Origin: Candidatus Amesbacteria bacterium RIFOXYB1_FULL_44_23
GTDB taxonomy: Bacteria > Patescibacteriota > Microgenomatia > CAZETR01 > Amesbacteraceae
Reading direction: 5' to 3'
Assembly (NCBI GenBank): GCA_001773775.1
Contig: MEXR01000048.1
Coordinates: forward strand, 1-38,251
Length of the DNA stretch: 38,251 nucleotides
Part shown: in pieces, positions 6,106 to 38,251 of the stretch
Position numbering within the stretch: position 1 is the first letter of the stretch
Layout: every line of letters begins with the position of its first letter
Notes under the pieces: model-generated
What the model saw: only the letters and a program-made list of their open reading frames with translations
What the model was told of the DNA's origin: nothing
The model's database searches: none
Program-made: the position numbers and the translations under genes

Positions 6106-6231
6106 GTGACCCCAAGGGTCGTAGTTCAGAACCAGATAATCCCCGAACTCATTCAATATTATAAACTGTTTGCCTCTCAGATCTCTAGCTTCGACTTCCA
6201 GCCTCAATATAACTACGCTTAGGGATTAGAA
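6106..6231 (+). repeat. 126-bp direct repeat copy 2 (family-2 tail/att scar)
   Basis: GTGA-17nt-CAGAAC; frame VTPRVVVQNQIIPELIQYYKLFASQISSFDFQPQYNYA*. Confidence 0.9.
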
Positions 6232-6255
6232 CCAAGATAATAGTATAATTAATCA

Positions 6256-11974: not shown

Positions 11975-13447
11975 TTAGGCTTTAGAAGCAGACGGCTTAT
12001 TATCTTTCCTGGCGTCGATAAGTACGATGTTTTCTGCATCCGTTAAACCCAACCTTTTTAGAATATCCTGCACTCGCTTTAATTCCTTTAAGGTAAAGTA
12101 AATTATCACCTTAATGTTTTTATCGGTATCGTTGGCCTTTTCGTACACTCCTACCTGGTTTTGCAAATTTCTTTCTAATTGGGTATTAGTCGCAAGTTTT
12201 AGTTCGACCAAACTTTTATCGGCAGAGCCTTTAGAAACCTTTACGTCTACTGGGCCACGACCATTATTCACTTCGGTATTAAAGTCGAAGGTGGAACCGT
12301 ACCAGGTCAAGCGATAGGCTATTTTTAGGTCTTCCTCACGCCGTATAGGTTCTCCGTTAACGTAGAAGTACCTGTACCCGTCGTTATTTTCTATTACTGA
12401 CTTTAGGTACTGAACCCGCTGCATGGCTTCCTGGTAGGAGTCTGGGCTGGTTTTATAAAAGTCAGTCTTTTCGCCTAGAAGTAAGGCCAGAGCCTTAAAC
12501 TGCTCGGTATAGACCGTTTCAGAGAATGCCACTTTTTGCTCGCTAATGCTAGTCGCCCTATCGCCGTTATCCTCTTTACGCTTAATGTAATAATCAATTA
12601 GCTCTGGGAATTCGAGAATGGTCTTAATAGCCGCCTCTTTTTCATCCTTCCTTTTTGGCTCTTCGGGCAAGACGCTTTGGAAATAATTATTTACTTTCGC
12701 TCGTAATTCTTCGTTCGAAATTGCATAGGGAATGCTTGCAAATTCGTCTACCAGGTCGTCTTTATTTATCCAGGTTTCGTCCTTCGTAAGCATGTCTTTA
12801 GGAGTTAGAATTACAAAATCACCCTGGAAGCTAGGTAAATAATACCCGTCTTCTTCCCACGACTGGGTGTCATAGTTGAATCGTGCGCGGGGTACACGAA
12901 AATTACGGCAGAGCTTGGGGTCGAGATGTTTTTGTGCGAATACTTGGGTATATTGCAGTAGGTAGTCTTTTATGAGGTTTGTTGTAAAGTCGCTGATATT
13001 ATCTTTACCGACGCCATCTTTTATAAGGCACAACTTTTCTAAATGGGAACTTCTGGTAACTTTTTCCTGGCCGTAGTCGTTAAAAATTCTGGCGAAATTT
13101 TCATTTAATGCCCGCGCAAAATCATTACCTAGTGCGCTTCCCTTATTACCTTCTACCGAAAAGCCGAACCAGTTTTGCTCGACTTCCTTAAAACGATACC
13201 AGGCAGACAATAAGCCTTTGTTAATCGGTTGGGAAGTAGATTTATCACGCAAGAAACGCAGATAAGTAATTATCCCTTCGTGGAGTTGCTGGTACTCTGA
13301 TTTTTTGCTGTTAAAAAGCAGGAAGGGGTCAATAAAAAGAGGTAGGTCGGCGACCAGTGAAATATCGAACGCCCCGTAATCTTCTAGCGCCTTCTTACTG
13401 ATTCCGAAATAATCGGAAAATAATATCTTCGGCTGGTTATTTTCCAT
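11975..13447 (-). CDS. uncharacterised protein with C-terminal PD-(D/E)xK nuclease-like motif
   Basis: E..NGRGPVDVKV....LVELK...Q...Y; N-terminal DLPLFIDPFLLF. Confidence 0.6.
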   Translation of the reverse strand: MENNQPKILFSDYFGISKKALEDYGAFDISLVADLPLFIDPFLLFNSKKSEYQQLHEGIITYLRFLRDKSTSQPINKGLLSAWYRFKEVEQNWFGFSVEGNKGSALGNDFARALNENFARIFNDYGQEKVTRSSHLEKLCLIKDGVGKDNISDFTTNLIKDYLLQYTQVFAQKHLDPKLCRNFRVPRARFNYDTQSWEEDGYYLPSFQGDFVILTPKDMLTKDETWINKDDLVDEFASIPYAISNEELRAKVNNYFQSVLPEEPKRKDEKEAAIKTILEFPELIDYYIKRKEDNGDRATSISEQKVAFSETVYTEQFKALALLLGEKTDFYKTSPDSYQEAMQRVQYLKSVIENNDGYRYFYVNGEPIRREEDLKIAYRLTWYGSTFDFNTEVNNGRGPVDVKVSKGSADKSLVELKLATNTQLERNLQNQVGVYEKANDTDKNIKVIIYFTLKELKRVQDILKRLGLTDAENIVLIDARKDNKPSASKA

Positions 13448-13521
13448 AACATAGGACAGTTAAGTTATTATAACTCACCCAGGGTAACAATTTCATGCTA
13501 TTCTGCCGAAATTATTGCCAC

Positions 13522-13821
13522 CTACTGCGCTAATTTGCTTTCGATAAGTTCTCTAGCCTTCTTAGCGTCGTCGACTTTAATAAAGCCGCCTTCGAGTTTT
13601 TGGTCGCCAGTGCTATGGATGATAATTTTTGCCGCACCACCAGAGATAAACGGAATTTTTACCGCCTGAACTTTTAACTCTACCCCAGAAATGTTTTTAT
13701 AAAACAAGGTTTTAGAGTTATCTACGCCAAGCGCTTTAAGCTCTATAGCTACTCGGTCGTCATAAACGACTAAATGGCCGCCAGTACAGCGTGTCTTAAA
13801 TAATTGTTGCATTAGATTCAC
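13522..13821 (-). CDS. small beta-rich (PH-like) hypothetical protein
   Basis: 99-aa ORF preceded by AGGGGG; alternating beta pattern and terminal helix. Confidence 0.55.
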   Translation of the reverse strand: MNLMQQLFKTRCTGGHLVVYDDRVAIELKALGVDNSKTLFYKNISGVELKVQAVKIPFISGGAAKIIIHSTGDQKLEGGFIKVDDAKKARELIESKLAQ

Positions 13822-13882
13822 CCCCTTTCATAATTTTTAACCTTTAACTTAGGATTCTTATTTTTGCTGGGGGCTTTTCCAC

Positions 13883-14012
13883 AAAAAGCTCCCACCAGCG
13901 ATGGCTTGCGCCACCTGCTACCCTTTCGGATAACAGCCTCGACAGCGCTCTGGTAGGAGCTTGTTGCTGTCGAGGTCTTTGTGCCATGCCCCTTACGGGG
14001 TTTAGGCAACAC
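13883..14012 (-). ncRNA. candidate structured RNA of unknown family
   Basis: Four adjacent hairpins, three with GNRA loops (GUAA, GAAA, GCAA) on the minus strand, plus an alternative 13-bp helix ending in a U-tract. Confidence 0.6.
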
Positions 14013-14028
14013 TAGATTTTATTTAGCC

Positions 14029-14214
14029 TTACGGCTTAGTTGTACTATTCATTATTTTCTGTATGTCTGACAATTTGTATCGTCTATCCTTTCTCTTTCC
14101 TATTCTAACAGCGTTTAGACGGCCTTCGTTATCCCAACGTCGAAGCGTTTCGGGGTTTATCCCTAGTAGTTCGGCCGCTTCCCTAATTTTTATGAGTTTA
14201 CTATTATCATTCAT
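14029..14214 (-). CDS. MerR-like HTH excisionase / recombination directionality factor
   Basis: IREAAELLGINPETLRRWDNEG..R...RRY; divergent from the recombinase operon. Confidence 0.85.
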   Translation of the reverse strand: MNDNSKLIKIREAAELLGINPETLRRWDNEGRLNAVRIGKRKDRRYKLSDIQKIMNSTTKP

Positions 14215-14262
14215 AACTTCTATTAAATTATACTATAATAAACATACGAAAAGTAAAGAACT

Positions 14263-14667
14263 ATGAAAAATAAATCGGATAAGTACAAACTTCCCACAGG
14301 TGACGAATACGAAGGGCTTTTCAACCCAGAAGATTTAATGACCGTGTATTTCGTTAGGAATGGCGTCGGCTATAGGTGGGGTATTCCTTATAAAATTTTC
14401 GCTTCTAGTCGCTTCCAGGATATGAAGGAACCGTACGCAGATAAGGATTTAGTGGCGCTAGGCGGTGTTTTATTCGACATTTTAGTTATCGACAAGTATG
14501 CAATCGACTTCAAGCAAAAGACAGGCGTACAGAAGTTAAGCGTGGTCGTGAGGTCGTCCGAAACCGAGGATAAACAATTACTTCATAAACTGACGGGTAA
14601 GTTTCGAGAAAAAAGCGAAGTACTGAATAGAGATAGCATACCAGGAACTAATAAAGACCATGAATAG
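14263..14667 (+). CDS. hypothetical protein overlapping recombinase start
   Basis: 134-aa ORF with 8-nt overlap with the recombinase. Confidence 0.65.
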   Translation: MKNKSDKYKLPTGDEYEGLFNPEDLMTVYFVRNGVGYRWGIPYKIFASSRFQDMKEPYADKDLVALGGVLFDILVIDKYAIDFKQKTGVQKLSVVVRSSETEDKQLLHKLTGKFREKSEVLNRDSIPGTNKDHE

Positions 14668-16426
14668 TAAGCAAACAGTACCACTTCGGGCGGCAGTTTA
14701 CCTTCGGGTATCGACTGACGACCAGATAGAAAAATACGGCATTCCGCTACAAAAAGCGGCTGTAGACGCTGTAATTAACTCTAAAGGAAAGCTGGACGAC
14801 GGCTCGCCCGCTATGGTGCTTGCAGGAGAGCAATATATTTATAAGGACGAGGGTGTGAGCGGCGCTGACCCACTAGACGAACGACCAGCCTTTCTACGCA
14901 TGAAGGAAGATATAGAAAATGCGCCAGAGGGCGAAAAACCGTTCGATATTGTAGCCGTTTATCGAATTGACAGGTTCGCACGTAAGCTAAAAATTTTACT
15001 AGAGGTAATCGAATACTACGAAGCCCATGACATTCAGTTCATATCTGCCAATGAAAGTATCGACACTTCCACCCCGTTTGGTAAGGCTATGCTAGGTATT
15101 ATCGGCGTAATTGCCGAGCTGGAAAGAGAAACTACAAAAGCCAGAACCCAAGCTGGCAAAGTGCAAGCCATAGAACGAGGGGTCTATATGGGCGCACAAG
15201 CGCCTTATGGCTACCTAAAAGATAAGGACAAGCACCTACAAGTTTTTGCACCAGAGTCTAAAGTTGTCGAAGAAATCTTCGAATTGTTCGTATCACAGAA
15301 AAAGAATACCCAACAAATAGCAGACTACCTAGCTAGTAAGAAAATCCTTACCCCACTTCCTTCGGCAGTTCATTATGGAAAAAGACGAAAGGGACGCACA
15401 AAAGTTAACGACGAATACTTCTGGCGGGATTCTACCGTAAGAGGCATTGTTAAGGATGAAATATATCTGGGAATTTACTACTACAATAAGCACGAAGGAA
15501 AAAAACGCTTAGATAAATCACTCTGGAAAAAATCACCGACAGAACATGATTCCATTATCGACTATGGCACCTTTAGCATGGCCCAACAGCGTATTAAAGA
15601 AGATGTGGCCTTACGTAATAGCGCTAAAGCGGTCGAAAACCACTTATACCTACTATCTGGCCTCTTAAAATGCCACGCATGTTACGACCCATATTCTGGT
15701 CGCGACCCACTAAACTGGTCTGGTACAAGTAAGGTTATAAAGAAAAACGGCAAACGTGCCTACTACTATCATTGTGGGGCTAAAAACTCTAAGAAATACT
15801 CGACTGTGTGTAAAGCAATTCCATTCCCAGCCGATGAAATAGAAGCATTCGTTACCCAGTTTATTAAAGACTTGCTAAGCGACCCAGAGAACGTCTACAG
15901 GCATATTAACACGTTGCAATCTACGAAAATGGATAAAAGGAAGCTCCTAAAAAGACAGGTAGATATAACAAAAATGTTAAATCGAATACCTGGTAGCCGC
16001 CAGAATATAAAGCGCATGTACGGCAAAGGAGACATTACCGACGCAGACTACGACGAAAGAATGGCTAATGTTAAAAAGCAGGAAGCTGATTTAAGGAAAG
16101 ATTTATTAGTAATACAGGGACAAATCGGCGAAGATAAAATCTCGGAAATTTATGCTAGTACCTTTAAGCTGTTCGCGAAAAAATACAAGCCTTTCCTAGA
16201 CGGCCTAATGACCGACAGGCAGGAAGTATCCGACCTAATTCACCTTATTGTCGACAGAGTTAACGTTTATACGCGAAAAGCAACGAAAAAAGACAAAATC
16301 GCAGGCCGAAAAAAGGAAGACCAGGTAATCCCATACCAGGTGAGGATAGATTTACGCTTGCCGCAAGACATTATGCAACGCCTAGCACGGCAAGGTAAGT
16401 TCGAAGTCAGAAACGATAACTTGTGA
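14660..16426 (+). CDS. large serine recombinase (integrase)
   Basis: YLRVST catalytic Ser, DEGVSG, RP, DRFAR, APYGY, Zn-ribbon LLSGLLKCHAC...YYHC, coiled coil. Confidence 0.95.
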   Translation: MNSKQTVPLRAAVYLRVSTDDQIEKYGIPLQKAAVDAVINSKGKLDDGSPAMVLAGEQYIYKDEGVSGADPLDERPAFLRMKEDIENAPEGEKPFDIVAVYRIDRFARKLKILLEVIEYYEAHDIQFISANESIDTSTPFGKAMLGIIGVIAELERETTKARTQAGKVQAIERGVYMGAQAPYGYLKDKDKHLQVFAPESKVVEEIFELFVSQKKNTQQIADYLASKKILTPLPSAVHYGKRRKGRTKVNDEYFWRDSTVRGIVKDEIYLGIYYYNKHEGKKRLDKSLWKKSPTEHDSIIDYGTFSMAQQRIKEDVALRNSAKAVENHLYLLSGLLKCHACYDPYSGRDPLNWSGTSKVIKKNGKRAYYYHCGAKNSKKYSTVCKAIPFPADEIEAFVTQFIKDLLSDPENVYRHINTLQSTKMDKRKLLKRQVDITKMLNRIPGSRQNIKRMYGKGDITDADYDERMANVKKQEADLRKDLLVIQGQIGEDKISEIYASTFKLFAKKYKPFLDGLMTDRQEVSDLIHLIVDRVNVYTRKATKKDKIAGRKKEDQVIPYQVRIDLRLPQDIMQRLARQGKFEVRNDNL

Positions 16427-16496
16427 CTCCACGGGGACTCGAACCCCGGTTACCAGGATGAGAACCTGGTGTCCTAGACCGCTAGACGATGGAGCC
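16424..16496 (-). tRNA. tRNA-Glu (anticodon CTC), CCA not encoded
   Basis: GGCTCCA/TGGAGTC acceptor stem, CCAGG-TTCTCAT-CCTGG anticodon arm, GTTCGAGT T-loop. Confidence 0.95.
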
Positions 16497-30982: not shown

Positions 30983-33781
30983 ATGGCTCTTTTTAACAAA
31001 CTTTTTTCTAAATTCTTAGACTTTAACCAAAAGGAAATCAATCGTTTGGTAGCGACTGTCGCCGAAGTAAATTTGCTTACCGCCAAATTTGCCAAGCTCA
31101 AAAAACCTGAGGATTTTAGTAGTTACACTGCCGACTTGAAAAATCGCCTGACTGAAGGTCAGACTCTCAACCAGGTTCTTCCCGAAGCCTTTGCTTTAGC
31201 TCGCGAAGCTTCCGAAAGAGCCATTGGTTTGCGTCCTTACGACGTTCAGCTGATGGCCGCTATGTGTTTTCATGAAGGAAAAGTCGCCGAACAGCGCACC
31301 GGTGAGGGAAAAACCCTCTCAGCCGTTCCTGCCTTGTACCTAAACGCCTTAACCGGCAAGGGAGCCCATTTGGTGACCGTTAACGATTACCTGGCCCGGC
31401 GTGACGCCGGCTGGAATGGTCCCACTTTCCACTTGCTGGGGCTTTCGGTGGGAGTCATCATGCACGAGAAGTCATTTTTGTACGATCCGCAGTATTTCGA
31501 TCCTGCTCACGGCGATGATCGGCTGGCCCATTTGCGGCCGTGTGACAGAAAAGTGGCCTACAGTGCCGACATCACTTATGGCACCAACAATGAATTCGGT
31601 TTTGATTATCTGCGAGACAATATGGTAGGCAGCCTTGAGGAAAAATCCCAACGCGGTCATCATTTTGCCATTGTCGACGAGGTCGATTCCATTCTCATCG
31701 ACGAAGCCCGCACTCCTCTGATCATTTCCATGCCCGATACCGAGCCCACGCAAAAATATTATGAATTTGCCAAATTAGTCGACCGTCTGTCAGCCGATAC
31801 CGATTACATTATCGACGAAAAACACAGAACCGCCAATCTTTCCGAACACGGACTGAAAAAAGTCGAAAAAATGCTCAATGTGGAAAATCTTTATGAAAAA
31901 GATTTCGATACCATTCATCATGTCGAAAATGCTCTCAAAGCCCGGGCCTTGTTCATCAAAGACAAAGACTACATCATCCGCGAAAACCAGGTGGTCATCG
32001 TTGATGAATTTACCGGTCGTCTGATGCCCGGTCGCCGTTGGTCGGAAGGAATTCATCAGGCGGTTGAAGCCAAGGAAAACGTTACCATTCAGCAGGAATC
32101 AAAAACTATGGCCACCATTTCTTTCCAAAATTACTTCCGTATGTACGAAAAACTATCCGGTATGACCGGAACTGCCGCTACCGAAGCCGAAGAGCTGAAC
32201 AAAATTTACAAATTAGAAGTAGTGATTATCCCTACTAACAAACCCATGGTCAGGGCCGACCATGCCGATATCATTTATAAAACTACTCGGGCCAAATACA
32301 CGGCTTTAGCCAATTTAATTGGCGAACTGCATAAAAAAGGCCAGCCGATTCTGGTTGGTACCACTTCAATTGAAAAAAACGAAATTGTTTCTGATCTGCT
32401 TCATCACAAAAAGATTCCTCACCAACTTCTTAATGCTAAAAACCATGAAAAGGAAGCTACCATTATTTCCGAAGCTGGTAGGCTTGGTGCAGTCACTATC
32501 GCCACCAACATTGCCGGTCGCGGTGTGGACATTATTCTGGGCGGAACTCCTCCGCCAAACCCTAAGTTTGTTTTAGGGGACGATCGCCTCACCGAAGCAG
32601 CTTACAAAAAAGAATTGGCCAAATGGCAAAAAGCCCACGACGACGTTGTGGCTGCCGGAGGCCTATATGTAATAGGTACCGAGCGTCATGAATCCAGACG
32701 CATCGACAACCAGCTTCGCGGCCGCTCCGGCCGTCAGGGAGACCCGGGCGCTACCAGATTTTATTTGTCTCTGGATGACGACATCATGCGCATTTTTGGC
32801 GGAGACCAGGTAGCTAAAATTATGGGTTTTCTGAAAATTCCCGAAGACGAACCGATTGAACACGGCATGGTCAGTAAAGCCATCGAACAGGCCCAGGTCA
32901 AAGTCGAAGGCTTCAATTTTGACGCCAGAAAGAGCGTCGTCGAATATGACGATGTCATGAATAAGCAAAGAGAAATTGTTTATGGCTTAAGAAACAGGGT
33001 CTTAAACGGAGAAGTTACCGATCAGGAAATATTGGAGAAGCTTCAGAAGAATCTTAAAAATGTCATCAACATGTATGCCCCGCGGGGAATTGTTGAATCT
33101 GAAGTTCTGCCGATAACTACCGCCCTGGTCGACATTATTCCTTTTGATGATGCTTCCCAACAAGCTTTATCCGATCAGTTTCAAAAATTAGGTACGGCTG
33201 ATGAAATTTCCAAAATGACCGACGGAATTGTCGCCGACACTTTAGAAAAACGTAAAGACCAGGTGGGGGAGCAAAATTGGCAGCAAATCAAAAAGTTTGC
33301 CTATCTCTCTTCAATCGACCATTTGTGGGTAGAGCATTTGGACGCAGTGGATGATCTGCGTTCCGGAATCAGTCTTCGTGGTTATGGTCAGCGTGATCCC
33401 TTGGTGGAATATAAAGGTGAAGCCTTTTCCATGTTTGAAAGATTGGTTACTCAGATTGATTCCGAATTTGGCAAAAGACTATTCAGAATCCAAATCGGAG
33501 ATCCGCGCCAGGCTCCTCCTCCAAAAGCCATCGAAATTAAACCCAACTTTGATATCTCCACCCAGGACTCTGTGCCTTCGACCCAAAATCAAGCTGATTC
33601 ACCAGCTAGAAAGCTGCCGTTTATGAAAGGAAAACCCAAAACAGTTTCTCCTGATTTTCTCTCAGCCATGCAGGGATTACAAAAAGGTGGTGTCGAAAAT
33701 AAAACCAAAAACTTAGGCAGAAACGATCCCTGCTGGTGTGGAAGTGGAAAAAAGTACAAACGTTGCCACTATCCAAATTAG
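30983..33781 (+). CDS. secA: preprotein translocase ATPase SecA
   Basis: TGEGKT, VTVNDYLA, DEVDSILIDEARTPLIIS, RIDNQLRGRSGRQGDPG, SEC-C GRNDPCWCGSGKKYKRCH. Confidence 0.99.
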   Translation: MALFNKLFSKFLDFNQKEINRLVATVAEVNLLTAKFAKLKKPEDFSSYTADLKNRLTEGQTLNQVLPEAFALAREASERAIGLRPYDVQLMAAMCFHEGKVAEQRTGEGKTLSAVPALYLNALTGKGAHLVTVNDYLARRDAGWNGPTFHLLGLSVGVIMHEKSFLYDPQYFDPAHGDDRLAHLRPCDRKVAYSADITYGTNNEFGFDYLRDNMVGSLEEKSQRGHHFAIVDEVDSILIDEARTPLIISMPDTEPTQKYYEFAKLVDRLSADTDYIIDEKHRTANLSEHGLKKVEKMLNVENLYEKDFDTIHHVENALKARALFIKDKDYIIRENQVVIVDEFTGRLMPGRRWSEGIHQAVEAKENVTIQQESKTMATISFQNYFRMYEKLSGMTGTAATEAEELNKIYKLEVVIIPTNKPMVRADHADIIYKTTRAKYTALANLIGELHKKGQPILVGTTSIEKNEIVSDLLHHKKIPHQLLNAKNHEKEATIISEAGRLGAVTIATNIAGRGVDIILGGTPPPNPKFVLGDDRLTEAAYKKELAKWQKAHDDVVAAGGLYVIGTERHESRRIDNQLRGRSGRQGDPGATRFYLSLDDDIMRIFGGDQVAKIMGFLKIPEDEPIEHGMVSKAIEQAQVKVEGFNFDARKSVVEYDDVMNKQREIVYGLRNRVLNGEVTDQEILEKLQKNLKNVINMYAPRGIVESEVLPITTALVDIIPFDDASQQALSDQFQKLGTADEISKMTDGIVADTLEKRKDQVGEQNWQQIKKFAYLSSIDHLWVEHLDAVDDLRSGISLRGYGQRDPLVEYKGEAFSMFERLVTQIDSEFGKRLFRIQIGDPRQAPPPKAIEIKPNFDISTQDSVPSTQNQADSPARKLPFMKGKPKTVSPDFLSAMQGLQKGGVENKTKNLGRNDPCWCGSGKKYKRCHYPN

Positions 33782-33993
33782 GGCTATATATAGGAATATT
33801 ATCGATACCAGGATTAACAGTTTTTAAGAATAAACTGCATCAAACCGAATTTCTAATCCCCAGCCTCAATGGTCTAGTTGTTGAAAATCATCCTTAACCA
33901 CATGGTATAAATTTCTTGTCTATAATCTGCGCTAATAATTTAATCCTTGAGTATAAATTATTAATTTGGGTACGAACTGTTAAAATGTAGAAT

Positions 33994-34761
33994 ATGGATG
34001 ACGGTTCTACAGAAAATACATCTTCTGAAGAACAGAGAATGATTCTGACTCCCTTAAGATTTGCGAAGGAATTTACAAACATTTGGCCACAAATAAGGAG
34101 AAACGGTCATTTTAATTATTTTTTTGCAGGGAGTCTTGCAACGAATATCCTAATGCACGCAAAAAATATCCAAGATGTTGGATCTTCCAAAGCTATACCA
34201 ATTACTCCTGAAATTAGAAGACTGTTTGTAACAAACAAAATAAAGGATATAGATATTGCATACAGCCCAGATCATGAAGTTTGGATGGACGATGTTTTCA
34301 GCAAAGAATTTGAGAAATTCGAGAGATGTATTCAAAAATACAGATCTATAAGTGCATCGCCAAAAGGTATGGGGCTTGACCTGGCTTTAGAAGAATCATC
34401 GATTAATACTAGATATAAAGTTGTTACCACTGATGGAAATGAGTTCTATATTGTAGGATTAGACGCTATGATTGCCCATAAATTGGTATCTTTGGTTCGA
34501 GTTCATCGGGCTTATCCTGAAACAGCAAATGCCCAAATCGAGAGTATTTACAAAGCAGCGACAAGTGTTTATGGAACAGAGCATATTAAAGGTGTTATTA
34601 TTGGATTGTTTAAATTTTATAGAAAATACCTAAAACACTATAATGATTTATTTGGGACGCTTGAAACAGTCGCGTCTGAACTGGATACCAACAAAAAGAT
34701 TTCCCCATTTGTTAAAAATTTGTTCTCTTTAGCTGTAAAATCTAGCCAAAGGGGCATATAA
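33994..34761 (+). CDS. hypothetical protein, nucleotidyltransferase-like
   Basis: FAGSLA...KDIDI (GS plus DxD) and later LD / IAHKL. Confidence 0.55.
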   Translation: MDDGSTENTSSEEQRMILTPLRFAKEFTNIWPQIRRNGHFNYFFAGSLATNILMHAKNIQDVGSSKAIPITPEIRRLFVTNKIKDIDIAYSPDHEVWMDDVFSKEFEKFERCIQKYRSISASPKGMGLDLALEESSINTRYKVVTTDGNEFYIVGLDAMIAHKLVSLVRVHRAYPETANAQIESIYKAATSVYGTEHIKGVIIGLFKFYRKYLKHYNDLFGTLETVASELDTNKKISPFVKNLFSLAVKSSQRGI

Positions 34762-34814
34762 CTGGTTCGGTCTTCTTTTTATTCCGGATCCTACTTTCAT
34801 GAGGTACCCATTAT

Positions 34815-34845
34815 GCTAGCATTTCAAAAATGTCATTATCCAAAC
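34815..34845 (+). repeat. secA 3'-end copy 1
   Basis: GCTAGCATTTCAAAAA-TGTCATTATCCAAAC (KCHYPN). Confidence 0.75.
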
Positions 34846-34877
34846 AAGTATGTATTTGTCCCATCAAGCGCTTAATT

Positions 34878-35189
34878 TCAAACCGAGCGTTGTTCTTCTC
34901 TGCTTAGTTTAACTGCTTTTAGGAATCTTTCTGCTACTCTAATATCATTATATAGCTCAGATTTAGGATCTCTGTTTCCTGCGTAAAATTTCAATACGCC
35001 ATCCACACGATCAATAGGCATTGTAATAGCAACTGCAACTTGATTAAGTCTCTTCTCTTCGGAAATGTCCGGAAACTTAACAGAAAAATCATCAGCAACC
35101 AAAGCGTCCATTATTAGCATGCCAAGGGCTGCGTCCTGAGTTAATCTCTCCCTATCAGATAAACGCACTTCAGGACTGTTTGTATCCAT
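34878..35189 (-). CDS. hypothetical protein
   Basis: 103-aa ORF filling one cassette. Confidence 0.65.
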   Translation of the reverse strand: MDTNSPEVRLSDRERLTQDAALGMLIMDALVADDFSVKFPDISEEKRLNQVAVAITMPIDRVDGVLKFYAGNRDPKSELYNDIRVAERFLKAVKLSREEQRSV

Positions 35190-35234
35190 ATTTATATGAA
35201 TGACTCTCTAACAACTGAAATTATACACTATCAA

Positions 35235-35271
35235 GCTAACACCTCAAAAAAAATGCCACTATCCGAATTAA
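35235..35271 (+). repeat. secA 3'-end copy 2
   Basis: GCTAACACCTCAAAAAAAA-TGCCACTATCCGAATTAA (KCHYPN*). Confidence 0.85.
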
Positions 35272-35417
35272 ATCTAAATATATGGCCCTAGCAAATTAAG
35301 TATTCTAAGAACAAATTAAAGCGGATTATATATTATTTTTCAGCCTCACTTCTTCACTTCCCCACAACCGCCAGTGAGCATATAGTATTTTCTTGTAAGT
35401 ATTTCTATACTTAGAGT

Positions 35418-35858
35418 ATGAAACCTCTTCCGGTATTAATTAAAAACAATTATTTAAAAGTAGCCATTGTATTGGGTTTCATACTTCCTTTAGTCATTTT
35501 AGATTTTCTAGGCAGAAGAAGTGATATCGTTGATGACCGCTTGGCTTATCCTCTGCTGTTATATTTTTCTGGAAGTATGGTTTTGTTTCCGCTGACAGGT
35601 ATATTACGAGATTTAGTCAATATGCTTCCCAAAAACACTATTTTTAACATGTCACAACAAGTTGCTAAACATCCCATAGATCTTGAAAAGAGTCTGTCCA
35701 CAACGAACTTGAGCCCCCAAGAAGTTGAACAGAAAAAATCAGCTGTCTATAGTTTATTTAGTTTTAGTATTATCACCGGTTTAGAATTTATCTCGTTTAG
35801 TATGGGACTAGTAATTATCGCTGCTTTAATTTTGGGATTGATAAGTAAATTACTGTGA
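35418..35858 (+). CDS. membrane protein (3 TM)
   Basis: Hydrophobic segments; TATACT 6 nt before ATG. Confidence 0.7.
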   Translation: MKPLPVLIKNNYLKVAIVLGFILPLVILDFLGRRSDIVDDRLAYPLLLYFSGSMVLFPLTGILRDLVNMLPKNTIFNMSQQVAKHPIDLEKSLSTTNLSPQEVEQKKSAVYSLFSFSIITGLEFISFSMGLVIIAALILGLISKLL

Positions 35859-35870
35859 GGCACCGGTTTT

Positions 35871-35917
35871 GTTGGCACTTCAGGAAATGTCACTATCCCA
35901 CTTAAGGTCTATATATA
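35871..35917 (+). repeat. secA 3'-end copy 3
   Basis: GTTGGCACTTCAGGAAA-TGTCACTATCCCACTTAA-GGTCTATATATA (KCHYPT*); also matches the post-stop GGCTATATATA of secA. Confidence 0.85.
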
Positions 35918-35939
35918 AGCCTTATTCTGTAGTCTCCTT

Positions 35940-36428
35940 CTAAATAATATCAACCACAATTGGATCAACCAGCTTTCTGTAATCTTCGGATTTCATTGCT
36001 ATGGAAAATCTTCTATCTCCGGCATTAAAAATAATTTTTTCATTCTCAAACACAGACTTGTCTGCGAACACTTTTAGTCCGGTTAAATTGCCAAAAGGCG
36101 GTACTCCTCCCGGTTCTACCCCGTTTGTAAGTTGTGCTACTTCTTCAACTGTCGCAAACCTGATATCCTTTGCATTTAATATATTTTTAGCTTTAGCGTT
36201 ATCAAACCTTTTATCTCCTGGTATAACGATCATTACAAAGTATTTTCTACCATCATCTTCTTTAACTCTGACTATCATGGCTTTGGTCCCTTGTTTTAGT
36301 GTATATCCGGTTCTTATTTTTGCCGCCTCTTCACTGGTTCTAACAGCTTCATGCTCAAAAGTTTCAAACCACATTCCGGATTTTTTCAATAGATCCTTTA
36401 TGGTTGTAACTAGTGGATGATATTCCAT
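35940..36428 (-). CDS. YbaK/ProXp-family aminoacyl-tRNA deacylase
   Basis: H..VRTSEEAA, TKAMIV, GGVPPFG, FNAG; probable start MEYHP. Confidence 0.88.
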   Translation of the reverse strand: MEYHPLVTTIKDLLKKSGMWFETFEHEAVRTSEEAAKIRTGYTLKQGTKAMIVRVKEDDGRKYFVMIVIPGDKRFDNAKAKNILNAKDIRFATVEEVAQLTNGVEPGGVPPFGNLTGLKVFADKSVFENEKIIFNAGDRRFSIAMKSEDYRKLVDPIVVDII

Positions 36429-36624
36429 AAACTGTTTACGAAGTCTATTATAAATTGGACGTAGATGTTGTGTATATTCAAAATAGTAAGCTGGGTCAAA
36501 TATCCAAACCACTCCTTTCAGGCACAATTGTTCGGTTATCGTTTTTCTGTCAGGGATATAACTCCAATGATGTCACAATCAGTCGCACTTCAGTAAGAAT
36601 TTGACTCAAGATTATAATTGATTC

Positions 36625-37596
36625 ATGCCTTATACCTCTAAAGCACTGCCCTGGTTATTGGAAGAAGATGGTAGCGGGGTACGGTATTTGGCTTTAAAAG
36701 AACTGGTTGGCTTACCCAGGGATAATACTGAATTACTTCAGGCCAGACAAGTAGCCTACACCAAAGGACAGATTTCAAGAATCCTTAAGCATGTTGAACC
36801 TGAGGGCTTTTGGAATAAGCCCGGTGGAGGTTATTCACCCAAATATTTCTCGACTGTCTGGTCATTGATCTTGCTTTCGCAATTGGGGGCATCGGTCAAC
36901 GATGACAAACGCATTGCCCAGTCATGTCGGTATTATCTGGATCATGCTTACTCCAAAGATGGTTCAATTTCATACAACGGCACTCCGTCGGGCACCATTG
37001 ATTGTCTTCAGGGTAATATGTGTGCTGCACTAACTGATTTGGGATATCAGGATCAGCGGCTTACTGACACTTTTGAATGGATGGCCAGAAGTGTTACCGG
37101 AGGGGTGAAATATTATGCATACAAGTGTGGACCGAATTTTGCCTGCGGGGCCAACGGAAAAAAGCCATGCGCTTGGGGCGCCGCAAAAGTCCTATTGGCA
37201 CTGGGAAAAATTCCGAAGTCCAAAAGAAGTCAAACTGTCAATCGGGCAATTAAAGCCGGCGTGGATTTTTTGTTTTCCGTTGACCCGGTAACAGCAAAAT
37301 ATCCCACAACCAACGACGAGAAGCCCAATAGCAGTTGGTGGAAACTCGGGTTTCCCACCTTTTATTGTACCGACCTGCTCCAGCTGGCTGAAGCATTAAC
37401 GTCAGTCGGTTGCGGCCATGATCCCCGTTTAAAAAACGTTTTGGATTTTATTATGAGTAAACAGGATGACAGTGAGCGGTGGAAATTAGAACATGAATAT
37501 ACTAAAAAAACCTGGGGGGAGTTTGGTAAGAAAGGTGAACCCAGTAAGTGGGTGACTTATCGAGTCTTAAAATTACTGAAGATGCTCGAACAATAA
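36625..37596 (+). CDS. prenyltransferase/squalene-cyclase-like alpha-barrel protein
   Basis: WLLE, G.W...G..YSPKY.STVW.L, Q....RW, SKWVT. Confidence 0.65.
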   Translation: MPYTSKALPWLLEEDGSGVRYLALKELVGLPRDNTELLQARQVAYTKGQISRILKHVEPEGFWNKPGGGYSPKYFSTVWSLILLSQLGASVNDDKRIAQSCRYYLDHAYSKDGSISYNGTPSGTIDCLQGNMCAALTDLGYQDQRLTDTFEWMARSVTGGVKYYAYKCGPNFACGANGKKPCAWGAAKVLLALGKIPKSKRSQTVNRAIKAGVDFLFSVDPVTAKYPTTNDEKPNSSWWKLGFPTFYCTDLLQLAEALTSVGCGHDPRLKNVLDFIMSKQDDSERWKLEHEYTKKTWGEFGKKGEPSKWVTYRVLKLLKMLEQ

Positions 37597-37796: not shown

Positions 37797-38251
37797 GTGG
37801 ATTTAAATTCTGCCATTGAGTACATTAAATCCCAGCTTCAGGCAGGCAAAACTGCCGCTCAAATCACCTCGGACCTGGAAGCAGCTGGTTGGTCGCATGA
37901 ATCAGTTGTTCAGGCCTTAAGTCAGGCCCAATCGCCAGTAAGTGAGGCCAAGCCGCCAGTGGGTGATTACTTTTCTCGTGTACTCACCGGTCAAAAAAAG
38001 TTTCATGTCTTTTTGGCGGGTATCGTTTTAGGCCTGCTTATCACCATCAAGCCTTCTTTCTACTTAATCAAATACGGCTTGCCCTATATTAATAACTTAG
38101 AAAGCCAGGTTGTGTCGATTGTTGATGAAGTATTTCCCCAAGACTTGGAAATTACCATAAAAGATGGCATTGCTTCTACCAACGTAAAAGAACCGTACCA
38201 TATCGATGTCAACCGGGCTGCTATCGAAAGAATTTTTAATTTCCAAGACAG
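37797..38251 (+). CDS. membrane-anchored hypothetical protein, partial (runs off window)
   Basis: Open frame MDLNSAIEYIKSQLQAGKTAAQITSDLEAAGW... with one TM segment. Confidence 0.7.
   Translation, partial: MDLNSAIEYIKSQLQAGKTAAQITSDLEAAGWSHESVVQALSQAQSPVSEAKPPVGDYFSRVLTGQKKFHVFLAGIVLGLLITIKPSFYLIKYGLPYINNLESQVVSIVDEVFPQDLEITIKDGIASTNVKEPYHIDVNRAAIERIFNFQD

Follow-up and report, generated by a model that had tools for sequence, protein, structure and literature searches.

At the 3′ end of secA in a Candidatus Amesbacteria genome, we found an array of small gene units that are separated by copies of the secA terminus itself. The array lies in contig C48 of the groundwater organism Candidatus Amesbacteria bacterium RIFOXYB1_FULL_44_23 (MEXR01000048.1); this contig, analyzed over its whole length of 38,251 nt and referred to here as the window, is one of 62 that make up a 1.11-Mb genome with 43.7% G+C. 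Sites of the same kind stand behind secA in related genomes, with differing cargo, and widely in the class, and we regard a class-wide insertion hotspot with a defined site behind secA as well supported. Our explanation, which we consider probable, is that the secA 3′ end is the docking site for a tandem accretion of cassettes that carry no recombinase, in Microgenomates-type bacteria of the candidate phyla radiation (CPR), with the enzyme acting in trans.

The motif TGYCAYTATCC, with which each repeated core begins, occurs at positions 33764, 34831, 35254, and 35888 of the window, always on the plus strand and within a span of 2.1 kb. Only 0.02 matches would be expected, and none of 100 shuffles reached four. 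The first of the four is the end of secA, whose last codons are TGC CAC TAT CCA AAT TAG and whose product terminates as ...CWCGSGKKYKRCHYPN*, the terminal SEC-C zinc motif. An initial annotation of the window, made from the sequence alone, had reported these copies with spacings of 1067, 423, and 634 nt and a single gene per interval, in either orientation and without an integrase. All of this was confirmed, as each interval holds one open reading frame (ORF), in the order +, −, +, and Pfam finds no recombinase. The initial annotation had also raised the possibility that the 11-mer is scattered through intergenic DNA unrelated to secA. This is not the case: four of the five genome-wide matches form the secA locus, the fifth, on contig C34, has unrelated flanks, and a profile of the arm and core described below returned the three downstream copies and no other match in the whole genome.

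Comparison of the copies with secA over the five sense codons gives six synonymous changes and a single non-synonymous one (AAT>ACT, copy 4), in agreement with the earlier remark that the differences are nearly all synonymous. The stop codon is kept as TAA in two copies and is lost in copy 2, which would read nine codons further. An upstream arm of 25 to 30 nt, GYTRRCAYYTCARRAAA, precedes all three downstream copies. The initial annotation had called this arm absent from secA, which is correct for the arm as a unit but not for its inner 9 nt, which continue secA-like codons (F-K-K). Similarity among the copies also extends ∼20 nt 3′ of the stop (TTARGGYCTATATATA); the ∼14 nt that follow the secA stop (GGGCTATATATAGG, in copy 1) recur behind copies 3 and 4, and TAAGGTCTATATATA after site 4 is the same as behind secA. 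The left end of unit 1 carries the motifs CTATATATAGG (33784) and TTAAGAATAAAC (33824), which are of the type seen at a left end common to five units from three genera of the window's family (CTATAYATAGG, ∼27 nt, TTAAGAAYAAAC). The G+C content is 43 to 55% in secA versus 34 to 39% over 33601-36800; the drop begins at the secA stop, and the low G+C content persists to ∼36600-36800.

The secA 3′ end and up to 10 kb of downstream DNA were compared in 20 relatives, the closest of which is G010 (SecA C-terminal part 79% identical); in G010:C4 (L031), the first 100 bases after the secA stop read N. None of the six proteins encoded 3′ of secA in the window was found within 10 kb behind secA in these relatives, and therefore the region is not syntenic, an outcome that the initial annotation had left to such a comparison. 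A second copy of the secA end is located 0.17 to 8.4 kb 3′ of secA, on the same strand, in G004 and G012 (two extra copies each) and in G016, G017, G022, G009, and G007, and the same arm precedes every one of these copies. A pattern of the inner arm and core matched nine of the 27 genomes of the family, while a reversed-pattern control matched none. The arm stands behind secA, on the same strand, in 8/27 family genomes, representing 7 of the 18 genera, and the cargo differs between them; the remaining two matches of the scan (G010:C5 and G022:C3) lack the arm's TTCAA. Taken together, the restriction of the motif to one locus, the lack of synteny, and the recurrence with different cargo support the serial site-specific insertion into an essential gene that had been proposed.

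Beyond the family, an alignment of 24 sites, drawn from more than 10 families, gives TGTGGTACCCTATTTGRCTRRCAYTTCAARAAR and then TGYCAYTAYCC. Conservation covers ∼30 nt to the left of the core and ends ∼33 nt out, with nothing conserved beyond. Of the 75 loci retrieved, 64 contain one to three copies according to a site profile. When one genome from each of 185,579 species was searched with the exact arm and core pattern, 35 stretches were returned, most of them titled Candidatus Amesbacteria, Levybacteria, Daviesbacteria, Gottesmanbacteria, Roizmanbacteria, or "Patescibacteria group." The other titles were one Candidatus Saccharibacteria, two "bacterium," and 11 third-party assemblies labeled "uncultured Gammaproteobacteria." The same pattern gave 117 stretches in metagenome contigs, and two patterns gave no match in IMG/VR viral contigs. 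Among the 251 class genomes that are at least 95% complete, an arm-only pattern matched 10, from nine families (eight besides the window's own), with no control matches; this pattern recovers 33 of 60 known sites, and the window's own arms are too diverged for it. On every contig that carries both secA and a site, the site lies 3′ of the gene on the same strand, at a distance of up to 12.5 kb. In G231, G301, and G053, secA lies at the edge of its contig and a separate short contig carries the site, and in 7/80 metagenome loci the contig ends no more than 150 nt past a site. These contig ends fit assemblies that break at a repeated, variable locus.

The site measures ∼50 nt and consists of the arm, 25 to 30 nt long (class consensus TGTGGTACCCTATTTGRCTRRCAYTTCA), and a copy of the last 7 to 12 secA codons with the stop. 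The inner 9 nt of the arm, TTC AAR AAR, are identical to the F-K-K codons found just before CHYP in many native secA genes of the class, so the inner arm is not foreign to secA as a family; the native codons at this position in the window's family are Y-K-R/K. To the left of the inner 9 nt, the arm reads TGA CAC in frame and is therefore non-coding. Together with the first copied codons, the inner arm forms an imperfect palindrome of 9+2+9 nt, TRRCAYTTC-AA-GAARTGYCA, which is perfect in G062. Because of this palindrome, the site looks like that of a dimeric recombinase. Its center is positioned 5′ of the Cys codon, and the conserved half, from the center to an outer GGTACC block, is ∼25 nt. 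The consensus fold of the bottom strand has an energy of −6.6 kcal versus 0.00 in 200 column shuffles (minimum −0.51), and that of the top strand, the coding strand for most of the cargo, is 0.0 kcal; the bottom strand folds and the top strand does not because C·A mismatches on the top are G·T pairs below. Half-sites of ∼25 nt that abut a 2-nt non-palindromic center are typical of serine recombinase sites, and by resemblance to these the shape of the secA site would fit a serine recombinase best. The left boundary of secA similarity is constant in all sites, and the right flanks of the copies show no conservation across the class.

An arm-only profile, in which the core is not rewarded, yielded 60 unique arms, the window's own arms not being recovered. 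Intact CHYP codons follow 54 of the 60, and in 53 of those 54 a stop occurs within 10 codons. The tails after CHYP (N, DPGPN, QLPT, QYG, and others) resemble the native secA tails of various lineages. Where only one unit has been inserted, the copy next to the arm could merely be the native end that was pushed downstream, which limits what its frame can say. One of the two copies must nevertheless be derived from the unit and both are intact, which points to the unit as the supplier of a replacement terminus. From the kept frames and the palindrome center 5′ of the Cys codon, each unit may thus provide SecA with a new C-terminus. A native Arg codon just to the right of the palindrome center is kept in the window's secA and in none of its copies, so that the crossover point is possibly inside TGYCAYTAYCC and not at the center.

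Several further features of the site were noted. "Empty" units of ∼60 nt are found behind secA in G011 (L048) and G015 (L033), within the first ∼170 nt, in the order secA end, inner arm, GC-rich insert of ∼30 nt, and second end copy. A similar GC-rich insert parts the arm from the core in G017 (L041, oriented nt 991-1075), exactly at the palindrome center. The outer arm was also considered as a homologue of the secA codons for CWCG; by eye, 10/24 positions agree, which is not significant, and this was left as a possibility. An alternative alignment of the outer arm with one gap pairs TG-TGGTAC with TGCTGGTGC.

The units are small and their cargo is diverse. From 134 loci bearing an arm, some of them redundant, 83 bounded intervals were obtained (67 non-identical), with a median of 1427 nt and a range of 171 to 8439 nt. 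ORF direction is that of secA in 115 of 145 ORFs (79%). Protein clustering left 118/130 clusters as singletons, and Pfam assigned 128 families to the 145 ORFs, each in no more than three ORFs. The 25 commonest families include HepT and its nucleotidyltransferase partner, Fic, GNAT, APH, NUDIX, cupredoxin, radical SAM, and glycosyltransferases. Larger spans do occur, namely an 8.4-kb unit in G012, ∼12.5 kb in G157, and ∼24 kb between two sites in G231. Based on the sizes, the common ORF direction, and the lack of integrases, small units appear to be the normal state and not decayed large elements.

A recombinase is missing from the arrays. Pfam analysis, applied to the ORFs between a point 18 kb upstream and the end of the contig, found none in or beside the window array, the nearest being a large serine recombinase gene beside tRNA-Glu, 17 kb upstream (Table 1). 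The genome as a whole encodes two Xer-like tyrosine recombinases (C62 and C16), three large serine recombinases (C48:14660-16426, C3, and C60), and one Y1 (HUH) transposase-like ORF (C57). No homologue of the genome's five recombinases was found by phmmer among 1744 ORFs of 75 genome loci and 1343 ORFs of 80 metagenome loci, referred to below as about 155 loci. Likewise, no recombinase is present among the 10 ORFs of the 8.4-kb unit in G012 (Pfam), and in G231, G088, G012, G004, and G017 every recombinase gene is far from secA. The large serine recombinases gave weak scores, far below the cut-off, against CcrA/B/C models. That the recombinase acts in trans or was lost, as the initial annotation had suggested, fits these results, as none is encoded in or beside any array.

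We propose the following mechanism. A unit would consist of cargo, usually one gene (0.4 to 1.1 kb in the window), and a site of ∼50 nt at its secA-distal end. The site would be the binding and crossover site of a dimeric recombinase, with one half being secA coding sequence. A circular form of the unit would undergo conservative recombination with the secA end or, once an array exists, with one of its sites. This would leave one copy of the shared segment on either side of the inserted unit, and later units would be added in tandem. The secA gene would then be completed by codons brought in by the unit. The enzyme would be encoded elsewhere in the genome, with the two Xer-like, three large serine, and one Y1-like proteins as candidates. 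Four elements of this scheme are inferred: that units pass through a circular form, where the crossover falls, that the C-terminus is replaced, and that the units are mobile today.

Exchange of units between lineages has modest support from sequence comparison. A HepT module shared by G012 and a metagenome contig is 95% identical in amino acids and 82% in nucleotides over 551 nt, where the two secA genes are 74% identical in nucleotides. Three further shared cargo genes also exceed the identity of their hosts' SecA (e.g., 67% versus 42% and 62% versus 51% in amino acids).

A number of observations weigh against this reading. Some shared cargo may be vertically inherited, as suggested by two shared units: the units of G016 and G009 are 65% alike and occupy the same position, and the HepT module is at the far end in both of its hosts. 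A comparison of 50 loci that include 400 nt of secA yielded no near-identical hosts whose arrays differ, and every pair of at least 90% identity consisted of identical duplicates. Circular ends or terminal direct repeats were detected in 0/80 metagenome loci. Of 14 public runs, ten of which may be the source sample, X11, X12, X13, and X1 were compared as contigs, which cannot show circles, and no clean excision joint was seen; the sides of the joints that appeared were 21 to 23 letters long (21 for 33742>35248 and 33755>35248), and such short-sided joints probably derive from the secA ends of other organisms. At the site, an intact core is missing next to 6/60 arms, which adjoin other sequence instead. 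The breaks fall after TTCAAA (L123), after TGT or TGC (L077 and L186), and after TGCCACT (L117), and because they differ they do not mark one crossover point. In G088 and L123, copy-to-copy likeness continues 35 to 65 nt beyond the core into non-coding DNA, which is more than a simple crossover site needs. Ascertainment is a concern as well, since most loci were fetched by patterns that require the core. Finally, an attempt to name the recombinase by association was rejected, as no recombinase family tracks the arrays. Large serine recombinases occur in 6/8 array-bearing versus 14/19 array-less family genomes, Xer-like genes in 11/11 array-bearing genomes tested, and Y1 transposase-like genes in 26/27 family genomes, so that the last do not discriminate.

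The same runs gave additional information on the window. The array is unchanged in contigs of runs from several studies. In X11 and X12, which come from other studies, the stretch is present in low-depth pieces covering 30 and 27 of 30 bins. Pieces with zero differences bridge secA to unit 1 (X11, 33392-34044) and unit 2 to unit 3 (X12, 34983-35296), and these junctions therefore exist in X11 and X12 too. X13 (share 0.09) contains scattered pieces only. Two contigs of X1 cover 35562-35757 in unit 3, one identical to the window and one with 10 differences (depth 12.3 versus 4.6), which suggests that two strains or alleles coexist in X1. In X12, the loose ends at 33930 and 36446 hint at a variant whose content differs over the span that they enclose. 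With respect to the Y1 (IS200-like, HUH) ORFs, these are ∼225 to 250 aa and occur in one to eight copies per genome in 26/27 genomes (G000-G042; e.g., G000:C57:7535-7807), an unusually high copy number for genomes of ∼1 Mb.

Other explanations of the array were considered. The units could be decayed stumps of self-integrating elements, such as prophages, plasmids, or islands resembling integrative and conjugative elements (ICEs), that have lost their integrase and are now immobile. Such elements classically leave an insertion at the 3′ end of a gene together with a second copy of that end, and the large units, the damaged cores, the undefined far end of the window array, and the lack of any sign of present mobility in the public-run contigs, the close loci, and the 80 metagenome loci would all agree with decay. 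We nonetheless think this unlikely, as no tyrosine or serine recombinase homologue remains in about 155 loci, large units included, and the IMG/VR viral contigs lack the site as judged with two patterns. Furthermore, the full site is kept in units of only 0.4 to 1 kb, and random deletion would not yield a median unit of one gene with 79% co-directional ORFs. Even less probable, in our view, is that homologous (Campbell-type) or homology-facilitated illegitimate recombination duplicated a secA-end-like stretch with no dedicated enzyme. The duplicated stretch can indeed be long and lineage-specific, running into non-coding DNA (∼44 nt in G088 and ∼65 nt in L123), and a recombinase in cis was not found. 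Varied donors and crossover points, however, would not produce a constant left boundary with the same arm abutting it across families whose SecA C-terminal parts are only 30 to 60% identical, nor an arm that completes a palindrome with secA codons, and the ∼30 to 40 nt shared in the window, with mismatches, would be a poor RecA-type substrate. The constant boundary, the conservation of the arm across families, and the palindrome therefore favor a dedicated site over homologous recombination.

We assign a very low probability to the repeat being a functional host element, such as an operator or a transcript-end structure, that resembles the secA end while the genes around it turn over independently. 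A palindromic site conserved over a long evolutionary distance and an array that is identical in runs of several studies could be read in this way, but the site has no Rfam match at E values up to 1, promoter-like sites (14 versus 11.5 ± 3.5) and terminator-like sites (1 versus 1.6) are not enriched, and the top strand has no consensus fold. Moreover, the site is found only behind secA and always in one orientation, its presence varies among genera, and it carries in-frame CHYP codons and a stop, which an operator would not need. At the other extreme is a bolder form of our proposal, in which the array is a gene-capture platform of the CPR bacteria themselves: an unlinked, domesticated recombinase, encoded on the chromosome, would capture circular single-gene cassettes at the secA end, and the site on each cassette would have evolved to mimic and replace the codons for the last two zinc ligands of SecA. 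We hold this idea only tentatively. Accretion of recombinase-less cassettes at the secA 3′ end by an enzyme supplied in trans, whatever the origin of that enzyme, is the explanation that we retain.

Table 1. Coordinates of secA, the repeat sites, the units, and the nearest recombinase locus in the window.
Feature	Position	Strand	Description
secA	30983..33781	+	932 aa; ORF with Pfam SecA_DEAD, P-loop_SecA, SecA_SW, SecA_PP_bind, SEC-C (913-931)
Copy 1, attB/attL-like site	33752..33795	+	last secA codons; core 33764-33781
Unit 1	33782..34797	+	ORF 33994-34761 (+, 255 aa), no Pfam family
Site 2	34798..34845	+	conserved arm and secA-end copy; core 34831; stop lost; nhmmer E 1.2e-9
Unit 2	34846..35223	−	ORF 34878-35189 (−, 103 aa), no Pfam family
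Site 3	35224..35269	+	diverged arm and secA-end copy; core 35254; CHYPN, TAA; nhmmer E 1.9e-6
Unit 3	35270..35853	+	ORF 35418-35858 (+, 146 aa), no Pfam family; hydrophobic by eye
Site 4	35854..35917	+	arm and secA-end copy; core 35888; CHYPT, TAA; nhmmer E 7.6e-10
Possible unit 4, far end undefined	35918..36600	−	low G+C; ORF 35940-36527 (−) with aminoacyl-tRNA editing domain
Large serine recombinase	14660-16426	+	Resolvase, Recombinase, and zinc-ribbon domains; full length
tRNA-Glu	16423-16496	−	4-nt overlap with 3′ end of serine recombinase gene 14660-16426

Individual features of the window deserve comment. For the 255-aa protein of unit 1, structural comparison points weakly to AbiEii-like nucleotidyltransferases. 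The diverged arm of site 3 contains a promoter-like match on the minus strand at 35220-35247 (TTGAGG, 16 nt, TATAAT), just 5′ of the unit 2 ORF, and judging by its sequence the arm may double as the promoter of that minus-strand ORF. The stop codon of the unit 3 ORF, TGA, falls within the first bases of the site 4 arm. A fifth copy that would close unit 4 was sought and rejected, as its score was reached by 49/500 shuffles and the genome profile search gives three copies only. Upstream of secA are housekeeping genes for two class II aminoacyl-tRNA synthetases, two ABC ATPases, and a metallo-beta-lactamase-fold protein. The serine recombinase at tRNA-Glu is probably part of a separate integrated element, and ORFs without families lie 5′ of its gene at 11975-14667. 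The last 23 codons of the open terminal ORF of the window (38183-38251) match contig C18:1-69 exactly, and C18 therefore probably continues C48. Elsewhere in the window, a 129-nt direct repeat with 87% identity occupies 2398-2526 and 6106-6234. Both copies are intergenic and are the only two in the genome, and they bracket 3.6 kb with genes for a DHH phosphoesterase, a small kinase-like P-loop protein, and an APH-family phosphotransferase. As the initial annotation called the secA array a second one, this bracketed region may be the first array that it implies.

The genomes of CPR bacteria are tiny, these organisms have been genetically intractable so far, and they gain genes in ways that are little understood. 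In many of their families, secA is followed by a conserved docking site of 50 nt; the single-gene cargo there is hyper-diverse, and the locus itself lacks the acting enzyme. Should the units prove mobile, they would form a gene-capture system comparable in role to integrons and the islands of the staphylococcal cassette chromosome (SCC), made of different parts; if the enzyme is a domesticated recombinase, the system would be a main route for accessory genes into these reduced, ∼1-Mb genomes. The acting enzyme is directly testable, because the substrate is defined and the genome has only six candidate recombinases. In addition, accessory genes in such genomes can readily be located by this site, which also explains the frequent assembly breaks just behind secA and may serve as a natural landing pad for future genetic tools. 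Full-text searches of the literature returned no description of a secA-end system, although one may exist.

Among known systems, SCC and pseudo-SCC elements at rlmH (orfX), including the ccr-less units of composite islands, offer a close parallel. They also occupy the 3′ end of a conserved housekeeping gene, repeat that end at every junction, and form tandem units, many of which have no recombinase and rely on supply in trans (PMC13739063, bioRxiv 10.1101/336396). In contrast, the secA units lack a recombinase throughout about 155 loci, and the large serine recombinases do not track the arrays. SCC units measure 3 to 60 kb, whereas the secA units are mostly single genes of ∼1.4 kb. The target gene (secA), the CPR hosts, and a long conserved arm on one side only are further differences.

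Integrons, and clusters of attC sites lacking integron-integrases (CALINs), share with the secA arrays the small, mostly one-gene, mostly co-directional units and the highly diverse, largely unknown cargo that includes toxin-antitoxin genes. In both, the conserved site is only at the 3′ end of the unit and the bottom strand folds better than the top. However, the secA array has no adjacent intI, and the genome's two Xer-like recombinases score far below the integron-integrase cut-off (62 to 69 bits on TIGR02249, cut-off 265). The attC site is conserved in structure and forms a long bulged hairpin, whereas the secA site is conserved in sequence and has 50 nt with a 9-bp stem. The attC boxes have the consensus GTTRRRY/RYYYAAC, and no such boxes were seen by eye in the copies. 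An attC-like pairing of the two ends of a unit was also rejected (matched 6.63 versus mismatched 6.54). Lastly, what corresponds to attI at this locus would be coding sequence, namely the end of the essential gene secA.

Elements that accrete at the 3′ end of a protein-coding gene include ICESt1 and related cis-mobilizable elements (CIMEs) at fda. These elements and Salmonella genomic island 1 (SGI1) at trmE (PMC8409611, PMC2297512) share with the secA array the 3′-end insertion, an end restored by the element, and tandem, att-bounded, non-autonomous units. In these families, autonomous members with a tyrosine integrase use the same site, whereas none was found here in about 155 loci. Their units are also far larger, and the distribution of the secA site spans a whole class.

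Modules that are bounded by short sites, lack a recombinase, and are moved by host enzymes are represented by the integrative mobile elements exploiting Xer (IMEX) at dif and by the plasmid dif (pdif) modules of Acinetobacter. The secA units are similar in being recombinase-less modules of one to a few genes, and the array-bearing genomes tested all encode Xer-like enzymes. A chromosomal dif/Xer target was considered and rejected: in four complete genomes (G088, G223, G239, and G355) secA is 0.23 to 0.42 genome lengths from dnaA and, judged by this distance, is not at the terminus. No second palindrome-like site was found above control level in five genomes (four of one contig and one of three contigs). 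The palindrome center here is 2 nt, as opposed to the 6- to 8-bp center of dif sites, and all copies of the secA site are direct and do not alternate. In IS200/IS605 elements and in repetitive extragenic palindromes with their associated tyrosine transposases (REP/RAYT), a Y1 HUH transposase, which may come in trans, works on short subterminal hairpins. The secA site has a 9-bp hairpin favored on one strand, and Y1_Tnp-like ORFs of ∼230 aa are near-universal in the family; the secA sites are not dispersed, and only one end of the unit is conserved. In sum, the locus resembles SCC, CIME accretion, integrons, and Xer modules, yet the tests that define each of these families set it apart from all of them.

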